A stretch of DNA of 12,614 nucleotides from contig CAWGVG010000030.1 of NCBI GenBank assembly GCA_963825865.1, positions 1-12,614 on the forward strand. The letters run 5' to 3'. The notes beneath the pieces were generated by a model that saw only the letters and a list, made by a program, of their open reading frames with translations, made no database searches and was not told the origin of the DNA. Positions 1 through 12,614 of this stretch are shown in pieces. Position 1 is the first letter of the stretch. Every line of letters starts with the position of its first letter. Source of the stretch: an uncultured Nitrososphaeraceae archaeon (GTDB lineage: Archaea; Thermoproteota; Nitrososphaeria; Nitrososphaerales; Nitrososphaeraceae). Both the position numbers and the translations under genes were made by a program.

Positions 1-100
1 ATCATACAACCAAGTGAGAAGAGCTCACTCACTCAGTCTTTCTTTCTTTGACCTTGCAGAAATACTTTTCACATTGCTGTGTTTATTTATTCCTTGTAGG

Positions 101-1747
101 TTGAAATCGGACAGAAATTCTCCTTGTCCATGTGGTAGCAAGAAGAAATACAAACATTGTTGTCTTAGTCTGGACGAGGAAAAATCGAGATGGGATGATT
201 CAGAGGACGACTCAGGGGACAAATAAACGAATACTGTAACGAATTCTTCGACAGAGAAGATGCCTTGATAGCTGATGGAAAAGAAGACGTGAATAACCAT
301 AGCGACCTTGCTGACAGAAGGTTGTTTTATGATTGGTATATACACGATTACATTGTACCTAACAAAAATAATACTATAATCAAGTTATTTACTAAAGAAT
401 ATGAAAGCACTCTTACTGATCTAGAAAAAGATACTGTCAAAGAAGGGTCTATTCTGTATCGAGGTTTTTAGAAATTTTAGAGATTCGAAGAGGAGTAGGT
501 TATAAGGTAAAAGATATTTTCAATGAAACCAATGAGTTTTTTGGACATGATAGGTCATCTTCTCAATCTTTGAACAAGTATGACATTCTATATTCAAGAC
601 CATATCCTATAGGAAATATAACTAGACTTGCAGGAAGCGGGATTTTACTGGCTCATCATTTTTTGCCTCATGTTAAAAAATATGTTTTGTATAACCTTCG
701 GATCTCAAGAGAATTTCACCAGTTAAACGATAATACGGGAAATCTAGCTTTTGACACATATTTAAGGAATGAAAGTCTTTCAATTATACATTATTTGGAT
801 TCATTAAAAGAATTGAGTCCAACAGTCATGACTCCTGAAGGCGATATTTCAGTATTTTGTAAGAGTGAATTTGCTATTAAAAAAAACAGGCGTAGCGTTC
901 TGTTAGCACTAAACTCTTCAAAAAAAGAGTTTGCGCGTTTAGAAAATGAAGGAAAAACGATAAGATATGATTGGATTGAAGAATTAGAGAATAACAAACA
1001 ATTTGGTTATGAAAATGGTGATCATCATCAGGATGTAAACACAGGCACACGCAGAGGGGAGCAGAAAACAGACTATGTATCAGAACCAGAAAAGCTGACC
1101 TTCAGGACAATCCTGTGGTTGCCGCCTAACGAGGAGAAAGATACTTCGTTGCATTCAAGCAGCAAAGGCAAAAACAAAAAAGACAAAAAAGACAAAATAG
1201 GAGAACAATATACGCCCTATCGAGTCCTTGGAAATCTATCACTAACAGCAAAGACACTAATAGTTGAGTGCTTATCAGACAGGTTACTCGAAAGGTGCAA
1301 TGACACAATCCTGCGTCTAGTTGGTAGCAAACATCTCATACACCTTGGCGATAGTTACTCCGAGTTGATGCCACCTAATACTGCAGGTATAAGACAGGAC
1401 TCTTGGATGGAATATGAAAAACATGAGCATGGATTGAGTGAGGATGAGGAGAAAGAGAACGAGGAGTACAAGAAGATTATACCGAGCAAGAAGTTCTTGA
1501 AGATAAACTCCCTAATGAAGTAAAACAGCAAATCGATAATTACTTTGAAGAATACTATGAAAATTGGCTTTACTTGAAAATACCTGCACTTGACAACATG
1601 ACTCCCGTAGAGGCAGCTAAAACAGAGAAGGGTAGAAATGTGTTAAAAGAACTTTTTAAGGATATCGAAAATACAGACGCAAGAAATTCCAGAAAGAATC
1701 TGCCTCCATTTCCTGTTGCAAAGATGAAGAAAAAGCTGGGATTGTAA
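101..1747 (+). pseudogene. SEC-C zinc-motif protein with C-terminal Xre/MbcA/ParS-like domain; about 549 aa when three single-base frameshifts are repaired
   Basis: TTG at 101 opens RNSPCPCGSKKKYKHCC (SEC-C motif). The reading continues in frames +2, +1, +3, +2, with one base missing near 207, 450 and 1465. The last segment, absent from the ORF track, reads YFEEYYENWLYLKIPALDNMTPVEAAKTEKGRNVLKELFKDIE...KKKLGL* (stop 1745-1747), the W-L-x-x-x-x-P-A-L-x-x-x-T-P pattern of the MbcA/ParS C-terminal domain. The gene may be intact in vivo if the indels are assembly errors. Confidence 0.75.
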
Positions 1748-1898
1748 ACTCGAAGAATCAGATGTGTGAGTTGAGCCGGTTGTGTTAAGGTTAACAGTCG
1801 TATCTGACTAATATAGGATTGAAACAACCACAAGACACCCTAATTCAAAAGCTGATTATAATAATGATTCATTAGTTGCTCCCATGCTTTTTTGATGA

Positions 1899-2490
1899 CT
1901 ACTGAGATACATTCAAAATACCAGAACTGTATAATGTTTGTGCCATTTGATTAACATGGCTCTGATCATTAATGTTTCCTAGTGCAGATATCAAAGCTTT
2001 TAATTGATTGCTTTGTACTTCAAGCCTGCTTCTTTTCAATCAGGTCAATTTTCTCTTCTCGTCTTTGTGCTTTTGTTCTTTAAGCGTTTCTTGGTAGCCG
2101 GAAAATGACAAAACAACCATGCTGCACCTGAACATCATTTGAGATTTTTGATATTAGCTTCATTACAGTTGCTGCAGTAGCAGACTGGCTTTAGCTTTTC
2201 AACTTCAGAACCTTCATCTGATACAAAGCCCTCCGCTTTTAGCACTGCGTTACTTTCTTGATTGATTGTTAAACCAATGGATATAGCTAAATGCGTCTTT
2301 GAATTTTTGCTCTAACCACTGTACTGTCGGAGTTCGGTACTCATGAATCTGTTTTGCACGTTGGGTCAGGCATATATGGCGACAGACTTTATCCAATTTA
2401 GTAAGTAGTTATTGTTTTAGCTCCAATCATGCTCATTGCTTTGGCTGAGTATAGATGGCAATTAATAATTCTCAGACTAGCCTCGGGAAA
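1899..2490 (-). pseudogene. Degraded C-terminal half of a thaumarchaeal-type tyrosine recombinase/integrase with zinc ribbon and coiled-coil tail
   Basis: Manual minus-strand translation across frameshifts: ...LLTK..VCRHICLTQRAKQIHEY/ELRQYSG*SKNSKTHL/YIHWFNNQS/SNAVLKAEGFVSDEGSEVEKLKPVCYCSNCNEANIKNLK*C/RCSMVVLSFSGYQETLKEQKHKDEK/.../LEVQSNQLKALISALGNINDQSHVNQMAQTLYSSGILNVSQ*. RH lies at 2381-2376, G(W>stop)S has TAG at 2314-2312, the catalytic Tyr codon is at 2285-2283, CxxC is at 2176-2165 and the stop is at 1901-1899. The upstream boundary is approximate. Confidence 0.8.
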
Positions 2491-2502
2491 AGCCCGGGTC
2501 TA

Positions 2503-2676
2503 CTAAAAACCTAGGTGATATTTTACTGCAGTTATCTCACTAGGATCGTTGACTGCATCTAATCCACTGCCCGTCAGTATATCAAATGTTGCACGTTGGC
2601 CTGGAGATATTGTTGCTGGTTGCGGTGCACCATATTCTATGGCTAAGGTTTTGACATTCATTAACTGATGTATCAA
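2503..2676 (-). pseudogene. C-terminal fragment of an FxLYD-like beta-sandwich domain protein
   Basis: The open frame reads ...MNVKTLAIEYGAPQPATISPGQRATFDILTGSGLDAVNDPSEITAVKYHLGF* (ATG 2661, stop 2505-2503). P-x-T-I-x-P-G-Q-x-A-x-F resembles the second half of FxLYD domains. The FxLYD motif and a signal peptide are absent. Confidence 0.5.
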
Positions 2677-2715
2677 TTCCTCGATGGTAACTGTGTTACC
2701 ATTTTTACTTCCCTG

Positions 2716-2739
2716 TTTTATATTTTTATATTTTTATAT
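2716..2739. repeat. Tandem repeat (TTTTATAT)x3
   Basis: Three exact 8-bp copies read directly from the sequence. Confidence 0.85.
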
Positions 2740-2832
2740 CTGGATAGATAGACAGATATATCGTTTTTACGAGCGGTAGGTAGGTCATTTTGGTATATCA
2801 AAAAATCACATTATGATGTTTTCAAATCCCAT

Positions 2833-3291
2833 CTAGCCGAATCCTAAATTCCATATTTCACCAGCAAGCTTTTTTGCATAACCTGGCATTAGCAATGTAG
2901 TTTCGTCAGCAAATTTCTCTATGATACGTACCTTTTTATCTAAAGATTCCTTTTTCTCCTTATTTTGTGACGAAGAATGCGAATCCTTAGCAAGGGCTCT
3001 AAATAGAAACTGGATTCGCTTGGGAATAATCTCATTATATCTTTCGTATGACACTATGCTAAGGTTGACAAGTAGGACTATAGTCAAGGTGCCTTCAGTA
3101 ATCTCTTCTGCTATCATCAAAATTGTTCCTAGCAAAGAAAGGATTGATTCTTCGCTATCTATCTGAGATATTATTATCGTATTGATTGGTGTTGAATGTC
3201 TAACAATTTGAAATTGGCATACCAAATCTACTAGCTGGTGAGAATAAAACAGCTTGGATATAATATTACATATATAAAATACAAGGCACAA
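2833..3291 (-). other. Possible hypothetical protein fragment
   Basis: 152-aa ORF. Only the C-terminal half (KKVRIIEKFADETTLLMPGYAKKLAGEIWNLGFG) looks protein-like, and the 5' end overlaps the opposite-strand topoisomerase fragment. No family recognised. Confidence 0.25.
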
Positions 3292-3732
3292 GTTGGATAT
3301 TATAGTTCTTCGTCTGCACCTAAGAGCAATAGTAATCCAGAAGAAGTAACCCCCTCATCAACAACTCATATACAGTTTCCATTTTTGGTAGAGATTGCTG
3401 TTATTCGTACATCAGATCTTCCATATGCTCTATTTTATTGCGAAGGTATCAACGCATCACCAAAACACTACTATTCTTTTCTGCAAGATGATGATCTTGT
3501 CTGGACTTCTAAGGGTGGTAGGATAAACTTCGCATACCATGTTGAACAGCTTTTGGAAAAATATGGCTACTCTATACAGAAAGACAAATCCAAAAAACTA
3601 AGGAGTATCATAATGGTAAATTTATGGTCTCCTAGGATAGAGTATATAGACTATGGCAAATCACATATAGACCTAAAACCATTTTCTAAAACTATTGTAG
3701 AGATTAAGTTGGACAAAAAAGAGGAGGAATAG
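3238..3732 (+). pseudogene. Transducer-domain fragment of a type IIB topoisomerase-like protein (Topo VI subunit B / Topo VIII-like)
   Basis: FPFLVEIAV...GINASP...LLEKYGYS...IIMVNLWSPRIEYIDYGKSHIDLKPF resembles the end of the transducer domain with its switch lysine (compare Topo VIB IPYKSAGKESI). An in-frame stop at 3232-3234 precedes it. No GHKL ATPase domain upstream and no WHD/TOPRIM domain downstream were recognised. Confidence 0.65.
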
Positions 3733-4198
3733 TACAAGTAAATTATTAGTTGAGCGTAAATAAGAAGTAAAAGAATTATCGCTTTGTGTATGATATAGCA
3801 TACTTGGCACTTTTAAATACGCATATCTACTAGCTTCTTTTTTTTCATATTGCAATTTTTCAAGCCCTCTTCATGCTACCTCTTAAAATCCTCTGCTACC
3901 ACAATATAGCCTTCTAACATTTCCTTATAAAAAATGAGAACTTAACTAAATTTATACAAAATAGGCTTTAAAAGTAATTTATTGTCAGCTGTATATTCCC
4001 TTTGTTAGTATGATATATTACAATAGAAATGCATCACTCATGGTTTTAATTCCCTCTAGGTCAGTTTCAAACAAGGCTTATGTTAACGAGTTTGACTATC
4101 TATAACTAACTAACAAAAAATAAGTTCAAGGGGCATTGCTAGAACTAATGAATACAAAAAAAATATCAAATGGAAGAATGTCTAACATTTCAGAATAG

Positions 4199-4340
4199 TT
4201 TTTGTTAACAAAAAATTTTCCTTGTTAACATAAAATTGTAATTGTTAACAAGAAGTTGGCCTTTAACATCCTTTTGTTAACATTTTTGTTAACAATTTGG
4301 CGTCATTAGAGATCAAATTACCTTCAAAATTGTTAACAAT
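4199..4340. repeat. Array of six perfect TGTTAACA palindromes (iteron/centromere/operator-like)
   Basis: Copies start at 4203, 4223, 4243, 4275, 4287 and 4331, each preceded by T. Degenerate copies lie at 4081, 4179 and 4261. The first copy extends to a 16-bp palindrome, TTTTTGTTAACAAAAA (4199-4214). The region is non-coding. Confidence 0.9.
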
Positions 4341-4580
4341 CTCTTTAAAATGAGTTCAAAAGACGCGAGTACTTCTACCGCACTAGATTAGTGGACTGGG
4401 TGGATCCACATGGATTTCTGTACACTCATCAAGATTTAGTCGTTTCTGTCAGCACTTGCTTTACCTGTCCGGGACTCATCCCTATATTGTATGTAGTCGG
4501 TGTTAGTCTATAGCTTGATAGACGACTGGATACCACAGAGGTCACTAACAACGTCATCGAACAAATTTCTCGTCAATAAG

Positions 4581-5075
4581 ATGATGATCGTACATAATAA
4601 GGATTATAATTCTGAATCTTTCTCTCGTCATTTACAAGATCAAGAATCAAATTCAGATGTCTCTTTTACAGAAAGAGGAAGAAGAACAACAAATGAATCA
4701 ATACTATATCCAAAAAAGATTCTTCTTGTCGACGATGATCCTGACATTACTCTAGCGTTCAAAGTGGGTTTAGAAGATGATACATCATTTGAAGTGTATG
4801 CATATACCGATCCCCTAGAAGGGCTATCAAGCTTCAAGCCTCATTTTTATGATCTATTATTAGTAGATATAAATATGCCAAAAATGAATGGCTTTGAATT
4901 ATGCAGCAGGATATTAAAGATAGATGTTAACGTAAGGATTTGTTTTATTACTGCTGGTGACACAAATATAGAAGCTTTAAGGGAAATATATCATACATCA
5001 AGCTTAGGATGTTTTATTAAAAAGCCAGTTACAATAAGTCATTTGATTAAAAGACTAAAGTCTGAATTAGATTAG
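4581..5075 (+). CDS. Stand-alone response-regulator receiver (REC) domain protein
   Basis: Contains KKILLVDDDPD, phosphoacceptor LLLVDINMPKMNGFEL, FITA and FIKKP, with no output domain. ATG at 4581 (or 4584) is preferred over GTG at 4500. Confidence 0.93.
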   Translation: MMIVHNKDYNSESFSRHLQDQESNSDVSFTERGRRTTNESILYPKKILLVDDDPDITLAFKVGLEDDTSFEVYAYTDPLEGLSSFKPHFYDLLLVDINMPKMNGFELCSRILKIDVNVRICFITAGDTNIEALREIYHTSSLGCFIKKPVTISHLIKRLKSELD

Positions 5076-5294
5076 TCATAATAGTAGTGGCAATATTGAG
5101 ATTAAAGAGAAGCTAATATTATCTTTCTGTAACTTCAATTCGTATTTGTTATTATACATACTGTGGGTTCAGGCATACGCTTCTTTTCATAAATACCATC
5201 TGCAACTGATTCAAGCGAGAAGAACAAAAATAATAATAACAGATTAATCTAATTGATAGGATATCCTTATGGAAAATTTACTTTAATTATCTAG

Positions 5295-5594
5295 TCAATC
5301 TATAGTTACCGAATTTGATATTATCATATTTACTATTTGTACTAACTCATCATTGCTAATTGGCTTTTGAATATAGTTGATCTTAGTTAGTTCCGGAAAA
5401 TACTCATTTCTAAACTTCTTATAATATGCCTCAGAAGCTGTTATAAAGATGATATGTACTGCTTCATCAACCTCTCTTACCTTTTTACAGAGCTCAAATC
5501 CGTTTAGTACAGGCATTTTAATATCAAGTAAAATCAAATTATAATAGTTAGTTCTGAATTCTCGTAGTGCTTTAACTGAATCTGTATATAGCAA
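5295..5594 (-). pseudogene. N-terminally truncated response-regulator receiver domain
   Basis: Retains LILLDIKMPVLNGFEL, FITA and YIQKP. The beta1/alpha1 segment with the acidic DD/DE pair is missing and I could not find it in any frame immediately upstream. Confidence 0.8.
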
Positions 5595-6135
5595 AAACTG
5601 ATTATTAATTGGTTTATTTATAGCGCACTTTCACTTTCACATGTTTATTAATTGATTGATTGTTGAGTTACTTCCTCAGAATGAAGCAGTCAAGCATACA
5701 AATAGTAATAATAAGAGTTATACTTTCACCTGCTGTCTAATCTATTAGATCTCATGTTTCATTCCTGCTTCTATATTTCATTTGGTTAGTAGTAAAAAGT
5801 ATTGATAATCTAGAATAAAAGATAGTTGAGCCTGAATGCACTCACTACTATTTAATTATAAGACTATTAAAAACTCTACATTCCTGCTTGTACTCAAGGT
5901 TGAATGCTAACAACGTATGTAATATTGTAGCAGTGATATTAAATTTCGAAACTTTGTTAAATTTGATTATGGCAATACTACTGCATGGTACGCGTTTAAT
6001 GAGGTATCTGTAACAAGATACCGGGTAATCTACCAAAGATTTCAAAGTCTTTTTGGCTAATATGTCCAACGTACCATCCTGAAGTAATGGATAAAGACGC
6101 TGCCAATTATAGACTTGTTCTCTCCCTCTTTAGAG

Positions 6136-6219
6136 TTATTGCTTTTTGTCTCTTTCTGTTTGACTAATTACTCTTTCTGCATCCTTTTCGCCTTCTGCTA
6201 TTAATTTCTTTATTCTAGT
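6136..6219 (-). pseudogene. Short gene-tail remnant resembling the C-terminal helix of thaumarchaeal patatin-like phospholipases
   Basis: Reads TRIKKLIAEGEKDAERVISQTERDKKQ*, with an in-frame stop immediately upstream. The resemblance (IKKLIxxGExDAE) is recalled and covers only 27 aa. Confidence 0.3.
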
Positions 6220-6430
6220 TCAGTTGTTTTCTTATCACATTTTCCGGAAAATTCTGTTGTCACTTCATAGAAGTATATCACTAGACAAGGTTCTTATCAG
6301 TTTTATCACCTCTATTCAGAAACATACATAACCTTTTTTGTTTTTTCGTTTATGATCATTAATATCATAAAGTAGCCTATTACTGTTGTTATTGCAGTAA
6401 TGAAAGGAGATCATCTAAGATCTATAACAA

Positions 6431-7669
6431 CTACGATGATGATGACAACAACATATCATCTTCTTTTTTATAAGATTTCTTAAGCCATATAGGAGTAATG
6501 ATTGTAGTTACTGCTACCATTATAATTACGGCAGTATAGATATCTGCAGATAAGGCTCCGGATGTCACTCCTACTCCTGCTACAATTAAGCCTACTTCTC
6601 CTCTTGAAATCATTCCAATTCCTACTCTCATTGATTTGGTCCTGTTTCTTAGAAATATCATTGAAGGAAGACCACAGCCAATTAACTTTGTGACAATAGC
6701 TATAGATACAATTACGCCTGAAAGCAAAAGTACGTTAAAATTAACTCCACGTAGATCTACTTGAGCTCCAATTATAGCGAAAAACAAGGGCGCAAAAATT
6801 ATTTGTAATTTTTCAACGTATTCTTCTACACGTTTGATTATTTTGGTACTTGATACAGCCATACCTACTGCAAATGCCCCCACTATTGGAGATAAATTCA
6901 TAAATGCTGCCATACCTGCTGCTCCAAAGAAGGCTGCTGTCGTAATGCCTTCTATACTGCCTTTAGATTTCCATAGCTTTTCTACATGTAGAATCCTTGG
7001 AACTATGAGAACAGCTCCTATTAACAATGCTGCAAAAAGTCCAAGTATTTTTAAAATAAGGAGTGTTATGCTTATAATATCTGGGGATACATTTCCTGTC
7101 TGTACCATAGTTATAACAACAGATAATGCTGCAATAGCAAGAATATCGTCAACTATAGCAGCGCCTAAAATTAATCTAGCCTCTTTTGACTGCATCTTTC
7201 CTAATTCTGTTAGCACCTGAATTGATATTGCTATGCTAGTGGCTGTTAAAGCGGTTGCAACAAGTAAAGATTCTATTGCTTTTAGACCAAATGCAACAAA
7301 TACAAAGTAACCAACAAAGAACGGTACAATTACGCCAATTGAGCCTATAGTAAAAGAAGCAGCTCCTCCCTTCAAAAATTCCTTAGGTGTAATTTCAAGG
7401 CCGGCTATAAATAAAATAACTATGGCTGATATTTGGCCTATATTCCGCATAGTTTCATCAAGAACTACAAGAGGCTTTCCATCAAAAAAAGGAAAACTAC
7501 CTAATGCAAAAGGACCTACAACAATCCCAGCTAAAAGTTCGCCTAATACAATGGGCATCTTTATTCTGTGGAAAAGTTCAGCAAATAACTTTGAGGCAAA
7601 TAACAATATACCAAGTGAAAGCACAATGTGAAGAAAAGTTGCTCCTTCTGCTGCGGTAGATACCACCAA
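6431..7669 (-). CDS. Cation:proton antiporter, CPA2 family (NapA/KefB-type Na+(K+)/H+ exchanger)
   Basis: Intact 412-aa polytopic membrane protein with GELLAGIVVGP, ILFIAGLE, ATSIAI, GAAIVDDI (the DD motif), PLFFAIIG and GMISRGEV. Confidence 0.96.
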   Translation of the reverse strand: MVVSTAAEGATFLHIVLSLGILLFASKLFAELFHRIKMPIVLGELLAGIVVGPFALGSFPFFDGKPLVVLDETMRNIGQISAIVILFIAGLEITPKEFLKGGAASFTIGSIGVIVPFFVGYFVFVAFGLKAIESLLVATALTATSIAISIQVLTELGKMQSKEARLILGAAIVDDILAIAALSVVITMVQTGNVSPDIISITLLILKILGLFAALLIGAVLIVPRILHVEKLWKSKGSIEGITTAAFFGAAGMAAFMNLSPIVGAFAVGMAVSSTKIIKRVEEYVEKLQIIFAPLFFAIIGAQVDLRGVNFNVLLLSGVIVSIAIVTKLIGCGLPSMIFLRNRTKSMRVGIGMISRGEVGLIVAGVGVTSGALSADIYTAVIIMVAVTTIITPIWLKKSYKKEDDMLLSSSS

Positions 7670-7707
7670 TAATTGTTATCGATTCATAATGGAAGGGCAG
7701 CCCCTGT

Positions 7708-7720
7708 CTTAAAAGTTTGG
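7708..7720 (-). promoter_or_regulatory. Putative archaeal BRE/TATA box for the antiporter gene
   Basis: Minus strand CCAAACTTTTAAG lies about 40 bp upstream of the TTG start. Confidence 0.45.
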
Positions 7721-7779
7721 TTATTGCATGGGAATATATGTATTTTATATTTATAGGAATTTAAGAATAAGACAACTAA

Positions 7780-8211
7780 TTAAAACAAACATGGAGGTTC
7801 TTGTTGTTGTTGTTGCTGCTCTTCATCAGATTCATAAAGATAGCCTAACACTGTCTCAGCAACATCGCCTGGGGATGTATGACTCTTGGCTAATACAACT
7901 ATCATGCGATTTGATTCATGAATCTTAATAACCTTTATTTTGTCATATTCTGAAATATCCCAAAAGTGTCTTCCAAGAAGATTTGTTGATGGTTGTATTT
8001 CTTCTTCTACTTCTTCTTCTGTAGTTTCTTCCACTGTTTCAAATTTAAGATTCAATTTTGATATTATAGTTTCAATAAATGGACCATCAATCTTCGCGTC
8101 AGGAGCAATAAATAAATCAGACATCTTCCCATTAGAATCTACAATAAAAACAGCCAATATCTTTTCGTCTACTTCTACTATGTGTTTTATCTTTTCATAG
8201 GTTAACAGCAA
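7780..8211 (-). CDS. Hypothetical protein, possibly roadblock/profilin-like fold (DUF6659-like), with acidic and poly-Gln tracts
   Basis: Open frame co-oriented in the msrA-msrB-antiporter run. The pattern IVEVDEKILAVFIVDSNGK...LGRHFWDISEYDKIKVIKI...IVVLAK suggests this fold. The start is uncertain (TTG 8211 versus 8286). Confidence 0.7.
   Translation of the reverse strand: MLLTYEKIKHIVEVDEKILAVFIVDSNGKMSDLFIAPDAKIDGPFIETIISKLNLKFETVEETTEEEVEEEIQPSTNLLGRHFWDISEYDKIKVIKIHESNRMIVVLAKSHTSPGDVAETVLGYLYESDEEQQQQQQEPPCLF
7801..7818. repeat. Trinucleotide microsatellite encoding Gln6
   Basis: (TTG)5CTG on the plus strand, which is CAG(CAA)5 on the coding strand. Confidence 0.8.
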
Positions 8212-8379
8212 TATATCTAAGACAGAACGTACATCAGCGATAAGATATTTAAATTCATTTTGTAATTCATGTAGGCCACAAACCAATATGCCTCTCTTGT
8301 GGATTTTGTTACTATTGTAGGGAGTTTAGTTGCTTTCATCATGAAAGACACTAATCACATGAAAGAAAAGTAAATAACA

Positions 8380-8790
8380 TTAGGAATTATGCTTATCTAA
8401 TTTTAAAGCCACGGAATTTATGCAATATCTTTTTCCTATGGGGGCGGGCCCATCATTAAATACATGTCCTAGATGTGCTCCGCATTTGGCGCATTTAACT
8501 TCTTTTCCGATCATCCCATGACTCAAATCTAACTTCTTTTCAACATTTTCAGCTTTGATTGACTGAGTGAAGCTCGGCCAACCAGTTCCTGAATCAAACT
8601 TGTCATCTGCATTGAACAATTCATTACCACAGCATATACACTTGTATATTCCCTTCTCTTTGGAATTAACGTATTCTCCTGAAAAAGGAAGTTCTGTTCC
8701 TTTTCTTCTACAGATCTCATATTGCTCAGTGGTTAGCTGCCTCTTCCATTGCTCATCTGACTTATTGTCGACTATTCGTTCAACAACCAT
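8380..8790 (-). CDS. msrB: Peptide-methionine (R)-S-oxide reductase MsrB, zinc-binding type
   Basis: Contains GTELPFSG, CICC, KFDSGTGWPSF, CAKCGAHLGHVFNDGP and catalytic RYCINS. Confidence 0.97.
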   Translation of the reverse strand: MVVERIVDNKSDEQWKRQLTTEQYEICRRKGTELPFSGEYVNSKEKGIYKCICCGNELFNADDKFDSGTGWPSFTQSIKAENVEKKLDLSHGMIGKEVKCAKCGAHLGHVFNDGPAPIGKRYCINSVALKLDKHNS

Positions 8791-8832
8791 GTTGTTATAT
8801 TATCACCGCTTTCACCAATACCTAATATCATA

Positions 8833-9363
8833 TTATAGATAGCGAGCTTCCGCCATCCACGCCACTCTTTTTATAATATTTCTGATGGTATTCCTCAGCT
8901 TTGTAAAATGTTGAGGCTGGTACGATTTCAGTGACAATCATTCTTCTTCCATTGAATTTTCCAGATCTCTCTAAATCCTCTTTTGACTTTTTGGCAAGTA
9001 GTCCCTGTTCTTGTGTATGATATGCAATCATCGAGCGATATTGCGAGCCTATATCTGGGCCCTGTCTATTTTTAGTTGTAGGATCATGGACAGACCAGAA
9101 TACACTGAGGAGGTATTCATAGGAAACTTCATTTGGATCAAACTGTACCTGTATGGCCTCTGCATGACCAGTTTTGTCTGTGCACACATCTCTATATGTT
9201 GTATTGTTAAACCGTCCTCCAGTATAACCTACCATAGTTGATTTTACACCTTTTATCTTACGGAAAGCCTCTTCGACTCCCCAGAAACAGCCCGAGCAAG
9301 TGTTGCTAATTGCAGGTTTTTTGTTTTTGTGTTAGCTTGAATAATAATCTTCTCTTCGCTCAT
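8833..9363 (-). CDS. msrA: Peptide-methionine (S)-S-oxide reductase MsrA, with two apparent single-base indels
   Basis: ATG at 9363 gives MSEEKII...LQLATLA. One base is missing near 9295, just before GCFWGVEEAF (GCFWG at 9292-9278). It continues with GYTGG, TGHAEA, HDPT, QGPDIGSQYRS and AEEYHQKYY. Removing one base at 8844 gives the ending GGSCYL* (stop 8835-8833), restoring a likely resolving Cys. Confidence 0.92.
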
Positions 9364-9654
9364 ATTAACATATATTGGCTCTACTGTAATATGCTTTTTT
9401 CCAAATTACGTCCAAATTTATCCCATATGTTCTGTAACTTAACTCCATATTGATACTATCAATACTATTTTAATTTGGATATTATATCGTTTTAATTTTA
9501 CAACTTCATATACTGGTTATAAAGCATAAGTTTCAATCCAGCATGCATTAAATGACATTACCTTCTTTGACTTCTCATCTACAGCTATGTGCAGCTTTTT
9601 TTCTCGCGTATTCATTTCTCTTCTCTATAATGGAGTAGCCTGTTTCTTCTCAAG

Positions 9655-10173
9655 TTATGTCTTTAGCTCTGCACTTCCAAACAGGTACAGAGAAATCTTT
9701 ACACCATATCAAAGCCATATTGTATTTCGCCAGGTCTGTTCCATCAGGTATATTGTAATTTTGATTCCCGTTATTTGCTTTCAACCTTCCAAGATCTATG
9801 AAATTTGAGGTCGTTTTATCAATAGAGATAAAGATGAACATTAGGTCCATTAGTAGACTTGAAGTTTTCCATCTCCTAAGGGAATTACTTTTGCTAATCC
9901 TTCTGCATTGTGAAATCCGTCACCAGCTCCGATGAAAGAACCCGTCCATATTTTGGAGGTGATGGTTGCATTGACTTGTTGTTGTTTGATTGTTCCCGGA
10001 GTCATGGCATTAACAGTATTGTTTATCTGACCAGCTCCTATCATAACCATATTTTTCTCCCTTTGACTCATCTGTTTAGCGAGCATTCATTCTATCTTGT
10101 TCATTCATGGAAATGAATTTTTGATACTCCTGCGATACTGAATTTTTATTTACAATGGCAGCAGTTGTTGGTA
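9655..10173 (-). pseudogene. DM13 (putative electron-transfer) domain protein, 5'-truncated and multiply frameshifted
   Basis: Reconstruction: PTTAAIVNKNSVSQEYQKFISMNEQDRMNA/AKQMSQREK...TGSFIGAGDGFHNAEGLAKVIPLGDG/ENFKSTNGPNVHLYL/IDKTTSNFIDLGRLKANNGNQNYNIPDGTDLAKYNMALIWCKDFSV/LFGSAELKT*. Lesions are at 10081, about 9868, about 9825 and about 9685. GP-x-x-x-x-YL, LG-x-LK, NQNY-x-IP and IWC are DM13 motifs. Confidence 0.85.
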
Positions 10174-11302
10174 TCGTCGTCAGTCTTTGCCGTTGATGTA
10201 GCGCCTGCTCCACCTTCTATTGGAGCTGGTGTACCACTGACTTACTTTCGACCTGCTCCTTCTATGGTCCAACGTGAACTAATTGGTCCTTATCAACTGC
10301 TCAAGGCAGGTCAGGTTGACTTGAATGCTGGTACTATTACACTTCCACTTTACCAAGGACAAGTAAAGGTTAATGACGCAGGAGGGCAGCATAACAAACA
10401 AAGTAGTATGGTATATCCTCACTGATACAGACGATAAAGGTAACGCTGATGCCTTAGGTCTTAACTGGTCTCCAAAGCTGACCTACGCAGCTCACGGAGC
10501 ACGAAATGCAACACTAGAAAAGAATACTACTCTGACATTCAACGGAGGAACTGTAGATTTCAAGCCTGCTCATATGTTAACACCTGGCAATGCTCCAAAT
10601 TCCTTTCCACCTAAGGCTCTTCAGCCAGGGTCCATAGGCGATAAGGATTACACTCCACTTGTTCGCATAGAGAATGCTGGAAATCATATTTACAATGCGC
10701 CTGCTGTAGCTTTTGACGTTAATGCCAAACAGCTGAACTCATTTTGTAATGGCAACCCAGACTATCGCCTAGTACATGATAAGGTCGTAAAGATCTGTCC
10801 TGAGCAAGGTACCGTAACTATAAAACTAACGCCTGGTTTTAGCTTTGCTCGTCCAGTTCTTTATTTGAGCATGGATGCAAGTAACCCTCTTGCGGCATCT
10901 ATGGAAAATGCCACATTCTCAATCAAGCTTGGTGCCATAGCTACAGGACATGATGACAGTGCATTTAGTGCGGTAGAAAGAATCTTTGCCTTCATAAATG
11001 GCCCTACAGGTAGAGATAATCCACAAAGACAAGGATTTAATAGTGCTCTAACTGATGGTCTGTCGCCCCTAAATGTTCTAGGAGGTATACCGACGATTGC
11101 CACAGACTATAGTCCAATGTGGGATCTTAATATAGGACAGTGGACGCAGAAAGCCATCGACAACGGCTATCGCTCCAGAATGATAGAGGAATTCCAGATT
11201 CTGGGTTTTGTTGAGAAAGGATGGATAACTGGCCCTAGTGGATCTCCATATGGTTCAGCTGGCATAGTTGTAAACTGTCCAATAGTATACCGATTCTTGT
11301 AG
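10165..11302 (+). pseudogene. Conserved, probably secreted hypothetical protein (DUF7482-like), about 378 aa, with one frameshift and a truncated signal peptide
   Basis: ORFs 10165-10425 and 10373-11302 join at about 10394-10402 (CATAACAAACAAAGTA, an apparent 4-nt duplication), giving ...TITLPLYQG...HNKVVWYILTDTDD...DYSPMWDLN...VNCPIVYRFL*. It begins LLVSSSVFA-VDV, like the end of a signal peptide. The family label is recalled and unverified. Confidence 0.75.
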
Positions 11303-11333
11303 AAACTATAGAAATGAACTGCGGACATCATCC

Positions 11334-11346
11334 TTTTTTTTCTTTT
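11334..11346 (+). terminator. Putative archaeal oligo-T terminator
   Basis: TTTTTTTTCTTTT lies about 30 bp after the stop at 11302. Confidence 0.4.
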
Positions 11347-11615
11347 ATTACAATTTTCAAAAAATCAAGTTTGGTCATGATTCCAATTATAAAGCACCTG
11401 TAAGTAACTGATATCAGAATTATTAACCACCGCAATTCTTATAAAATAAATAATGATGTAAATGCATATAGAATAAAATAACCTTGGTTAATTAATGGAT
11501 GTTTCTTTCTGTGATCTTGCTTCTGTATTATTATCTATTATGTTAACTGGTAGACATCATTTCCAGGTTCGCTCACTCTAAAAATGACATGCAAGATTTT
11601 GTTTTTTGGCTTAGT

Positions 11616-12238
11616 CTATGATCTCGGTTTTCTTACTAGTAGGGAGTTTCTGATATTTTTTTCTTTGAGGAAACTGCTTAATGCTTTTGAATAAATTTCA
11701 TAAATAATGCTCTCATCACCATGATTAACGACCTTGTCTTCATAAGACTTAGCAGTTTTAACAAGAAAACGAGATAGGTTTTCTGATATCGCATCAATAG
11801 ATTCTGGAGTCTGGTCAATAGCATACATTGAAGATTGTGGTGGGGTGATGATGATGATGATGATGACAGGACTTTTCTATTCAACATAAGCAAAGATACA
11901 ACTACTGCTCTTGCTCTTTCAAGGCTAACAGGATAGAAATATCGAGCAATACTTTTTGGCAATGAATCTAAATTGTATACAAATAGATATGCTGTTGTTG
12001 AGAAAAATATTTGCATTATTCTATGTCTTTCGACTTCTTTCTTTGCTATAGTTACCAATTTTTTAGATCTAAGTATATTCATATGATAATTAAGAGAAGC
12101 TGCTGTCAACCCCAATTCATTAGCCAATCCTGCCTGTGTCATAGGCCTTTGCCTGAGTAGACCTAGAATAGCTCTTCGCATTGGATCAATGAGTACTTTT
12201 GCAATTTTTGCATCATCTACAATATATACTGCTTTCAT
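11616..12238 (-). CDS. ArsR/SmtB-type winged-helix transcriptional regulator, about 207 aa, with one frameshift
   Basis: AKVLIDPMRRAILGLLRQRPMTQAGLANELGLTAASLNYHMNILRSKKLV is an ArsR-type HTH. One missing base near 11830-11860 joins it to ORF 11616-11828 (MYAIDQTPESIDAISENL...). Confidence 0.88.
11846..11866. repeat. (TGA)7 microsatellite encoding Ser7 in the regulator
   Basis: Read directly from the sequence. Confidence 0.85.
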
Positions 12239-12614
12239 TTTTTTAATAAATCACTCAATTTGCCATAATCTTTAGTCTAAGTATTATTATTATTATTAAG
12301 TATATTGAATCAGGCAGATAAACCTAATTATTAGATCTAATGTCTCATCCATAGTTACCTCTCTAATACCTAACCCAGAATTGCCACCGCTGCAAATATA
12401 TAACATCTGATATGTCGCTTGCAAAGTGTTCTGTCCATTTCTTATTCCTATACAAGTCCAAAAAACAATGAAACCAAAAGTACCAGCCTTGTTAGTAGCA
12501 CTCTGTCAATGTTTACATCTAGCATATCTTAGAATGTGACGTGATTATGATCAATATAGTTTCCCTAGTCAAAGATAATCATCTTCCTCCTATTCAGAAA
12601 AAGAGTAATACGAA

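Follow-up and report, generated by a model that had tools for sequence, protein, structure and literature searches.

A conserved array of short palindromes between a tRNA-Ala 3' end and an integrase gene in Nitrososphaerales: a candidate attachment-site arm

Tyrosine integrases of the heterobivalent type work with arrays of arm-type and accessory sites in the phage attachment site (attP), for which the Int/Xis/IHF system of phage lambda is the paradigm. Classical arm-type sites (lambda, HP1, and L5) are asymmetric and lie on both arms, and archaeal tyrosine integrases are usually described on simple attachment (att) sites. Clustered short repeats are also known from iteron origins, where typical iterons measure 17–22 bp, and from small-protein centromeres of plasmids (parC/ParR, the omega heptads, and AspA of pNOB8), and metbox operators consist of tandem, abutting 8-bp palindromes bound by dimers of the ribbon-helix-helix protein MetJ. 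Here, we describe an array of the 8-bp palindrome TGTTAACA in a stretch of 12,614 nucleotides (nt) from an uncultured Nitrososphaeraceae archaeon (contig CAWGVG010000030.1, positions 1 to 12,614), which as a whole is called the window below. In related genomes, the same array lies between the 3' end of a tRNA-Ala gene and an integrase gene, and it is very probably a conserved protein-binding array at the integrase and att end of an integrated element. The more specific reading that we favor, with about an even chance of being correct, is that the array is the integrase-proximal arm of the element's att site, with accessory sites of the arm type to which protein binds.

The accessible text of a 2021 review of archaeal tyrosine recombinases mentions arm binding for lambda Int only and accessory proteins for SNJ2 only (PMC8371274). 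Of 68 mapped thaumarchaeal integrated elements, 39 lie in tRNA genes, all but one of them in the 3' part, and the att repeats measure 8–26 bp for most, with a median of 17 bp (PMC6563490). The family described here resembles these elements, as far as their description is accessible, in its tyrosine recombinase, its tRNA 3'-part target, a short att, decay that is frequent, and insertions that are tandem or nested. The accessible parts of that source yielded no array of repeated binding sites next to att, and since its accessible text and four supplementary files contain neither "tRNA-Ala" nor "Ala", the present target and family appear to lie outside its 68 mapped elements. A literature search with bioRxiv supplements outside its scope found no description of TGTTAACA or its GTTAAC core in ammonia-oxidizing archaea; the mentions of TGTTAACA among the matches listed are primer or construct contexts.

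The six perfect copies, which have no strand, are numbered here S1 (4203–4210), S2 (4223–4230), S3 (4243–4250), S4 (4275–4282), S5 (4287–4294), and S6 (4331–4338). Their start-to-start gaps are 20, 20, 32, 12, and 44 bp and their span is 136 bp; a recount agrees on these figures with a preliminary description of this DNA, and likewise on the only other perfect copy in the whole window, at 10575. The seven copies compare with 0.38 expected, and 0 of 200 dinucleotide-preserving shuffles contain seven or more. Scaled by hand, the shuffle mean gives an expectation of about 0.004 copies per 136 bp. The 20-bp units that had been read in the first three copies are recovered by Tandem Repeats Finder as a 20-bp unit repeated 2.5 times (4202–4251), together with a 12-bp unit repeated 2.2 times (4272–4298). 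Among three degenerate copies also proposed, the outlying one at 4081–4088 (TGTTAACG, no strand) is a true one-mismatch copy, and its position is not kept in the tRNA-anchored alignment described below; those at 4179 (TGTCTAACA, one base inserted and outside the one-mismatch set) and 4261 (CTTTAACA, two mismatches) are weaker. No open reading frame (ORF) of at least 50 amino acids crosses 3856–4499 and no open frame spans the array, so the region is non-coding as had been stated, except that 4112–4180 holds the remnant of a broken small gene.

Helical phasing of the array, another early proposal, is weakly supported. The window gives a mean resultant length of 0.73 at 10.5 bp per turn, a value that 3,208 of 100,000 sets of random spacings attain, and the related loci L007, L051, and L036 give 0.54, 0.74, and 0.68, respectively. 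The upstream tract at 3920–4030, which had been singled out as AT-rich, is not distinctive, since its GC content (0.295–0.30) is matched at 5001–5800 (0.278–0.297). Folding of the array as single-stranded DNA gives z=−3.9, as is expected for repeated palindromes. The TATA-like motif TTTAAAA located 3' of S6 (4345–4351) was considered as a conserved promoter and dropped, as it is common to L084 only; a sigma-70 and terminator scan of the window is uninformative for archaea.

Species-representative genomes were scanned for three TGTTAACA separated by 4–34 bases. At least 120 loci were found, and the counts given here are those of a sample. Nitrososphaerota account for 20 of the 120 loci listed and fall into two types, of 13 and 7 loci. 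The seven loci of type 1 (L007, L036, L051, L055, L075, L084, and L094), which come from assemblies of Nitrososphaerales, Nitrososphaeraceae, Nitrososphaera, and Nitrosopolaris, share the spacing pattern of the window, and the array is not unique to this DNA. For instance, the gaps between sites are 21, 20, 33, 12, and 45 in L007, identical and in reversed order in L055, and 21, 20, 44, and 44 in L051. By blastn, positions 4124–4403 of the window match L051 and L084 at 78–87% identity.

What these loci have in common beside the array is the end of a tRNA gene. In loci oriented like the window, a tRNA 3' end lies on the opposite strand about 60 bp past the last site, and ARAGORN identifies tRNA-Ala(CGC) 54–62 bp from the array in four of the seven loci (L007, L055, L084, and L094). 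The window, L051, L036, and L075 have a stump only, of about 9–24 nt. In the window, it is a 13-nt 3' stump of tRNA-Ala(CGC) at 4391–4403 on the minus strand, which had been missed by the preliminary description; it lies about 60 bp from the last array site, aligns with the tRNA 3' ends of L007, L055, L084, and L094, and is presumed to be the remnant of the att core. ARAGORN finds no tRNA gene and Rfam no match in the window, and a search of its 12.6 kb for a second stump copy with up to three mismatches gave none apart from a chance-level match at 8853. The four tRNA-Ala(CGC) loci and the window stump together indicate a short att in the 3' part of a tRNA gene, in the sense of PMC6563490. An ion-channel gene lies past the tRNA in L007 and L055. 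In L075, positions 1880–2110 form a second orphan, a tRNA stump with a partly decayed array and without an integrase, and this array adjoins ORFs that are lipoyl synthase-like and glycine-cleavage-like (translations judged by eye). Positions 29–232 of L075, 1.7 kb from its stump, show 75% identity over about 200 bp to window positions 9665–9868, on the same side of the stump.

The distances between the sites and the tRNA end are strongly constrained. Measured from an anchor at the tRNA end, the six sites of the window start at −189, −169, −149, −117, −105, and −61; those of L007 range from −194 to −63 and those of L051 from −190 to −61, and S6 lies at −59 to −63 in seven loci. Across seven loci, the offsets of S1 to S6 stay within a few base pairs, the exception being a block shift of about 10–11 bp. 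The gap between S3 and S4, for instance, measures 32–33 bp in three loci, and in L036 and L094 it comes to 43 bp, longer by about one turn of the helix. Repeated sites are thus found at a conserved distance from the crossover core, as is typical of arm-type sites.

The sequence of the sites is constrained as well. In a MAFFT alignment of eight loci (the window and the seven of type 1) anchored on the tRNA end, S1, 189 bp from the anchor, and S3 are perfect in all eight, S2 in seven, and S6, 61 bp from the anchor, in seven with one mismatch in the eighth. S4 is perfect in five of eight loci, with one mismatch in two, and S5 in six, with one mismatch in one; both are deleted in L084. Compared in pairs, the loci are 96% identical over the 48 site columns and 43% identical over 162 columns of spacer. 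Pairs of loci give the same picture: L007 and L055 differ at 0 of 48 site columns vs. 19 of 166 others (p=0.006), the window and L051 at 1 of 48 vs. 73 of 166, and the window and L007 at 0 of 48 vs. 91 of 162. The conserved motif is limited to W-TGTTAACA-W and extends no further, and in the orphan array of L075, three of six sites are mismatched. The sites are held in sequence and in distance to the crossover region, and the intervening DNA drifts. From this conservation, we infer that a protein binds the array, and the conservation and constraint across eight loci agree with the binding-type platform that had been suggested from the window.

In four of the loci (L007, L036, L051, and L055), the array is situated between the tRNA end and a gene for an archaeal phage-type integrase (Pfam PF16795), in keeping with the early proposal of an integrase-type mobile element. 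The integrase has 345 amino acids in L007 and 386 in L036 and is split by frameshifts in L051 (2407–3595) and L055 (2098–3253). A profile of the integrase family, run against six-frame translations of the 120 loci and the window, matches exactly these 4 of 121; the flanks of L084 and L094, at about 300 bp, are too short to judge whether an integrase is present. No integrase remnant was found in the window, where tblastn gave nothing better than E=0.73 and the family profile no match, or immediately to the left of the array, where positions 3600–3900 of the minus strand were translated in three frames. L007, L036, L051, and L055 do carry the integrase, and the window is therefore the relic of an integrated element and not an intact member. 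The family comprises at least 185 clusters in soil Nitrososphaeraceae. Its members are often frameshifted or truncated in Nitrososphaeraceae assemblies (L051, L055, and 145 short proteins), and a search for shorter homologues returned truncated integrases only; these suggest widespread decay of the elements. Neither the integrase nor the array DNA has a match in phage and plasmid collections.

Whereas the sites keep a constant distance to the tRNA end, S1 and the integrase start are separated by 120 bp in L007, 358 in L051, and 429 in L036, and the small genes between them vary as well. A winged-helix-like ORF reads toward the array in L051 (63 amino acids) and L084 (80 amino acids); these proteins match many helix-turn-helix (HTH) families weakly, and HTH_40 scores best (1.4e-5). 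The ORF reading toward the array in L036 and L094 is of the AbrB/MazE type (52–57 amino acids), and the L036 protein matches PF04014 with 27.6 bits against a cutoff of 24.7. All four of these ORFs end 8–75 bp before S1, which places the array downstream of the small gene and outside its promoter. L007 and L055 have no small gene; there, the integrase frame stays open up to 4 bp from S1 and, ahead of the annotated start of the integrase, contains one further site, S0. The window retains a broken winged-helix gene at 4112–4180 on the plus strand, found by tblastn with the 63-amino-acid protein of L051 (E=0.002) and matched to L051 by blastn at 4124–4181. It carries an in-frame stop, a frameshift, and a premature stop, with frames reading 'NKK*VQGALLELMNTKK' and 'NIKWKNV*'. 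With the winged-helix gene broken and no integrase found, the window has lost the candidates for a cognate binding protein, as the preliminary description had concluded. The integrase is the sole gene common to all three subfamilies (winged-helix, AbrB, and neither), and its N-terminal region of about 100 amino acids is well conserved among 25 aligned members.

Together, the constant distance between sites and tRNA, the variable distance to the integrase, and the position of the array past the stop of the small gene point to arm-type sites. A family of Nitrososphaerales elements would insert into the 3' end of tRNA-Ala(CGC). Read in the direction of the tRNA, the order in intact relatives is tRNA-Ala, a spacer of about 60 bp, S6 to S1, a small winged-helix or AbrB gene (in two subfamilies), and the integrase gene. 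The six sites would be arm-type protein-binding sites that wrap about 140 bp beside the core, and the wrapped arm would help to build or steer the recombination complex. Since the integrase alone is common to the three subfamilies, its conserved N-terminal domain is proposed, more tentatively, as the binder, and the winged-helix or AbrB protein might act as a directionality or accessory factor. Like a lambda-type attP arm, the array consists of short repeated sites over about 150–200 bp at fixed positions beside the crossover core, with an integrase gene and a small winged-helix-type gene adjoining and a tRNA 3' end as the target. Unlike in lambda-type systems, each putative binding site is a perfect palindrome of 8 bp, or of 10 bp if the W flanks are counted, only one arm is seen, and the integrase combines an SSV-type catalytic domain (PF16795) with an N-terminal domain of no known family. 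Cooperative binding of dimers to arrays of 8-bp palindromes, as in the metboxes, would be the simplest physical model for the sites, although these lie 12–44 bp apart and metboxes abut.

Several points weigh against an att-site arm. Part of the site conservation is built in, given that loci were chosen by three perfect sites and that MAFFT locks onto the sites; nevertheless, selection for three sites does not account for the conservation of all six positions or for the substitution counts between pairs of loci. Perfect palindromes on a single arm depart from the asymmetric sites on both arms of the classical systems. In two loci, the window and L075, the array and stump stand without an integrase, and the context of L075 may allow a chromosomal origin of the array. 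The integrase N-terminus matches no Pfam family (three N-terminal pieces and 25 members searched) and has no sequence or profile match in the PDB; a ribbon-helix-helix fold for this region, considered on the strength of its sequence pattern, is unsupported, with empty Pfam and PDB searches and an hhalign probability of 0.8%. No second att copy bounds the element within the 12.6-kb window; the element may reach past the window or have decayed too far. Finally, TGTTAACA is also conserved in a region adjacent to orc1/cdc6 in Nitrosopumilales, and this may point to a host factor or to a role in an origin.

This region constitutes the second type of locus. The 13 loci from Nitrosopumilus, Nitrosotalea, and Nitrosopumilales represent one conserved intergenic region between orc1/cdc6 and a gene for a hypothetical protein of 129 amino acids (L015 1597–2076; also L018, L031, L038, L050, L054, L065, L077, L093, L106, L111, L112, and L119). 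The Orc1/Cdc6 protein has Cdc6_lid and Cdc6_C domains. The region contains an AT-rich stretch and a repeat in two direct copies and one inverted copy, which we take to resemble the archaeal origin recognition box (ORB). There are three to five TGTTAACA, of which three (spacing 30 and 16) lie just upstream of the 129-amino-acid gene and one or two between the repeats. The region looks like a chromosomal origin carrying an extra conserved motif; according to the accessible part of the reviews (PMC4010727), Pelve et al. (2013) mapped the origin of N. maritimus, which has only one. In L015, a 53-amino-acid AbrB/MazE-type gene (2471–2632, minus strand) adjoins the 129-amino-acid gene; its fold class is that of the small proteins of L036 and L094, and this may be a coincidence. 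The octamer near orc1/cdc6, which was missed in the preliminary description, keeps the link to an origin alive as a minority reading. It is conceivable, if doubtful, that TGTTAACA is the site of a novel sequence-specific factor of ammonia-oxidizing archaea that serves both the chromosomal origin and mobile elements. If so, the element would have in the array either its own origin or an IHF-like architectural platform taken over from the origin machinery of its host.

The preliminary description had taken the array for an origin or centromere, and a replication origin of the iteron kind or a partition centromere of the excised element, loaded cooperatively by a Rep-like or centromere-binding dimer, is one alternative to the att-site arm. 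The tandem units of the window (the 20-bp and 12-bp units above), the AT-rich DNA, and the helical phasing, present though weak, are in line with it. So is the presence of a small gene (winged-helix or AbrB) directed into the array, recalling small centromere-binding proteins such as AspA of pNOB8, ParR, and omega, and TGTTAACA itself is conserved in the ORB-bearing, Orc1/Cdc6-adjacent region of the 13 Nitrosopumilales loci. The array thus shares with iteron and centromere systems clustered, roughly phased, AT-rich repeats with a small DNA-binding gene adjacent. It differs from them in its octamer, which is shorter than an iteron, and in the genes around it. Beside the 20-bp unit, repeated 2.5 times, no rep-like domain or gene occurs in the window ORFs or the 2-kb flanks of L007, L036, L051, and L055. 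The same window and flanks contain no orc1/cdc6 gene or Cdc6 domain and no parA, parB, or parM gene or ParA, ParB, or ParM domain, the winged-helix or AbrB gene standing alone. An ORB-like profile built from 31 Nitrosopumilales repeats, from which a Nitrososphaerales ORB could differ, gives a best E=8.2 in the window and the seven related loci vs. 3e-8 in the L015 control, so no ORB-like element is found near the array. Moreover, the integrase and array are unmatched in phage and plasmid collections, where no free replicon of this kind is thus known, and the suggestion of an undescribed replicon class is not borne out. Since distance is kept to the tRNA and att core, which neither an origin nor a centromere would need, and not to a gene start, a recombination arm fits better, and we regard the origin or centromere as unlikely. 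A related proposal is that a DNA-binding protein encoded by the host and also acting at the chromosomal origin has been borrowed by the element, for replication or as an architectural factor in the way that lambda borrows IHF. This would account for the division of the 20 Nitrososphaerota loci listed into 13 next to orc1/cdc6 (Nitrosopumilales and Nitrosotalea) and 7 tRNA-Ala/integrase arrays (Nitrososphaerales) and for six perfect sites in the window although the element's genes are gone. However, in the orphan of L075, the sites have decayed. The 129-amino-acid protein of Nitrosopumilales is not similar to the winged-helix protein of the elements (E=27), and its relatives among the matches listed (the best 120 of 4,038) are all of the Nitrosopumilus type. 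As an AT-rich 8-mer palindrome for which the scan also lists many unrelated bacteria, TGTTAACA could be shared by convergence. A borrowed host protein is therefore distinctly improbable in our estimate.

An array of operators, to which the winged-helix or AbrB protein or the integrase would bind in order to control the integrase gene or to block read-through between the small gene and the converging tRNA, is an improbable alternative as well. Palindromic 8-mers are typical operator half-site pairs. Further in favor of operators, S0 in L007 and L055 lies inside the open frame upstream of the integrase start, with that frame reaching 4 bp from S1, and in Nitrosopumilales, three sites directly precede the 129-amino-acid gene, the last one in L015 ending 22 bp before the ATG. 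Conversely, the array is downstream of the small-gene stop in L051, L084, L036, and L094 and, with 358–429 bp between it and the start of the integrase in L051 and L036, outside a divergent promoter region. An invariant octamer is accompanied by non-homologous small proteins or none, and an operator has no need of as many as six sites that extend over 136 bp and keep a constant distance to the att core. A chance low-complexity repeat, a decayed coding repeat, or an assembly artifact could be suspected in an AT-rich region with short tandem units. Such an explanation is scarcely credible given that no shuffle matched the observed count, that seven independent assemblies have sites at the same six positions although their spacers have diverged, and that the array is spanned by no open frame; the coding-repeat and duplication-artifact alternatives that the preliminary description had left standing are contradicted by these observations.

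The octamer also occurs in clusters near tRNA genes of bacteria. Among the other 100 loci listed, ARAGORN places the array no more than 65 bp from the 3' end of a tRNA in only six, all of them from Chloroflexota/Dehalococcoidia (L020, L025, L032, L035, L057, and L081), with tRNAs Leu-TAA (two), Ala-TGC, Gly-CCC (two), and SeC. Each has three TGTTAACA 37–62 bp past the tRNA with a spacing of 21 and 12 (12 and 23 in L020). Converging small genes of the Xre-type HTH class lie past the sites in five of the six, genes that are weakly ribbon-helix-helix occur in L032, L035, and L057, and the HTH frame of L081 ends short of the sites. These arrays are possibly the end of another family of integrative elements with the same octamer. 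Other dense arrays of TGTTAACA were seen in a Methanobacteriaceae contig (L080 1383–2078, 12 copies in 700 bp), in a Metamycoplasmataceae contig (L110 301–416, 13 copies with a 9-bp period), and in Methanosarcina (L014 2001–2048, three copies at 20-bp spacing).

Elsewhere in the window, the left side of the array bears traces of a decayed element. An internal piece of a gene for a Topoisomerase VIII (Topo VIII)-like type IIB topoisomerase lies at 3238–3705 on the plus strand and corresponds to about residues 290–440 of proteins of about 860–970 amino acids. The ORF at 3238–3732 has 65 relatives at E≤1e-3, and by tblastn, the window matches at 3238–3705 alone, a piece of about 155 amino acids. 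The consensus of the long relatives has a Bergerat-type ExxxNAxD motif at the N-terminus and a Toprim-like E...DxD at the C-terminus; their Pfam matches to HATPase_c and DUF2399 are weak and below threshold, and their profile matches Topo VI B structures with E=7e-4. On these weak profile matches, a Topo VIII-type gene is a plausible assignment, and the gene of this type proposed earlier for the window would be present as a fragment. Topoisomerase VIII is a single chain with a GHKL/Bergerat ATPase, a transducer, and a Toprim-bearing cleavage part. The family resembles Topoisomerase VIII of free and integrated plasmids, as characterized in the accessible parts of PMC4117785 and PMC7671362, in its putative Bergerat-type ATPase and Toprim-like parts, and the window departs from it in holding the internal piece only. 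No association of a Topo VIII-like gene with the array was found in the other loci, and the Topo VIII-like relative has no match in the phage and plasmid collections. The fragment is a relic of the decayed element. Of the remaining left-flank ORFs and 15 stop-to-stop frames searched against Pfam, NCBIfam, and PHROGs, nothing rises above noise besides a weak, sub-threshold match to rve_2 at 2253–2408 on the minus strand (E=0.013), possibly the trace of an insertion sequence. At 2–1747, the plus strand carries a run of ORFs (2–226, with a SEC-C motif, 265–471, 570–1523, and 1574–1747) without other family matches, possibly a single gene split by frameshifts. To the right of the array are two receiver-domain genes (4500–5075, and 5295–5594 on the minus strand), followed by genes for a Na+/H+ exchanger, msrB, msrA, a DUF7482 protein, and an ArsR-type regulator. 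The array was considered as a promoter of the receiver-domain gene at 4500–5075, and this was rejected as the gene accompanies the array in no related locus. The window is thus a fossil: a 13-nt stump, a broken winged-helix gene, and a Topo VIII-like fragment remain, the integrase is gone, and the six sites are perfect.

As an att-site arm, this family of arrays would be a first archaeal candidate for an att site that is complex and depends on accessory sites. The recurrences of the octamer in the Nitrosopumilales origin region and beside Chloroflexota tRNAs are separate leads. In a group without a genetic system, the array offers a concrete DNA target for biochemistry, and the succession of a tRNA stump, about 60 bp, and the array may serve as a signature with which integrated elements and their fossils can be found and dated in the genomes of ammonia oxidizers.

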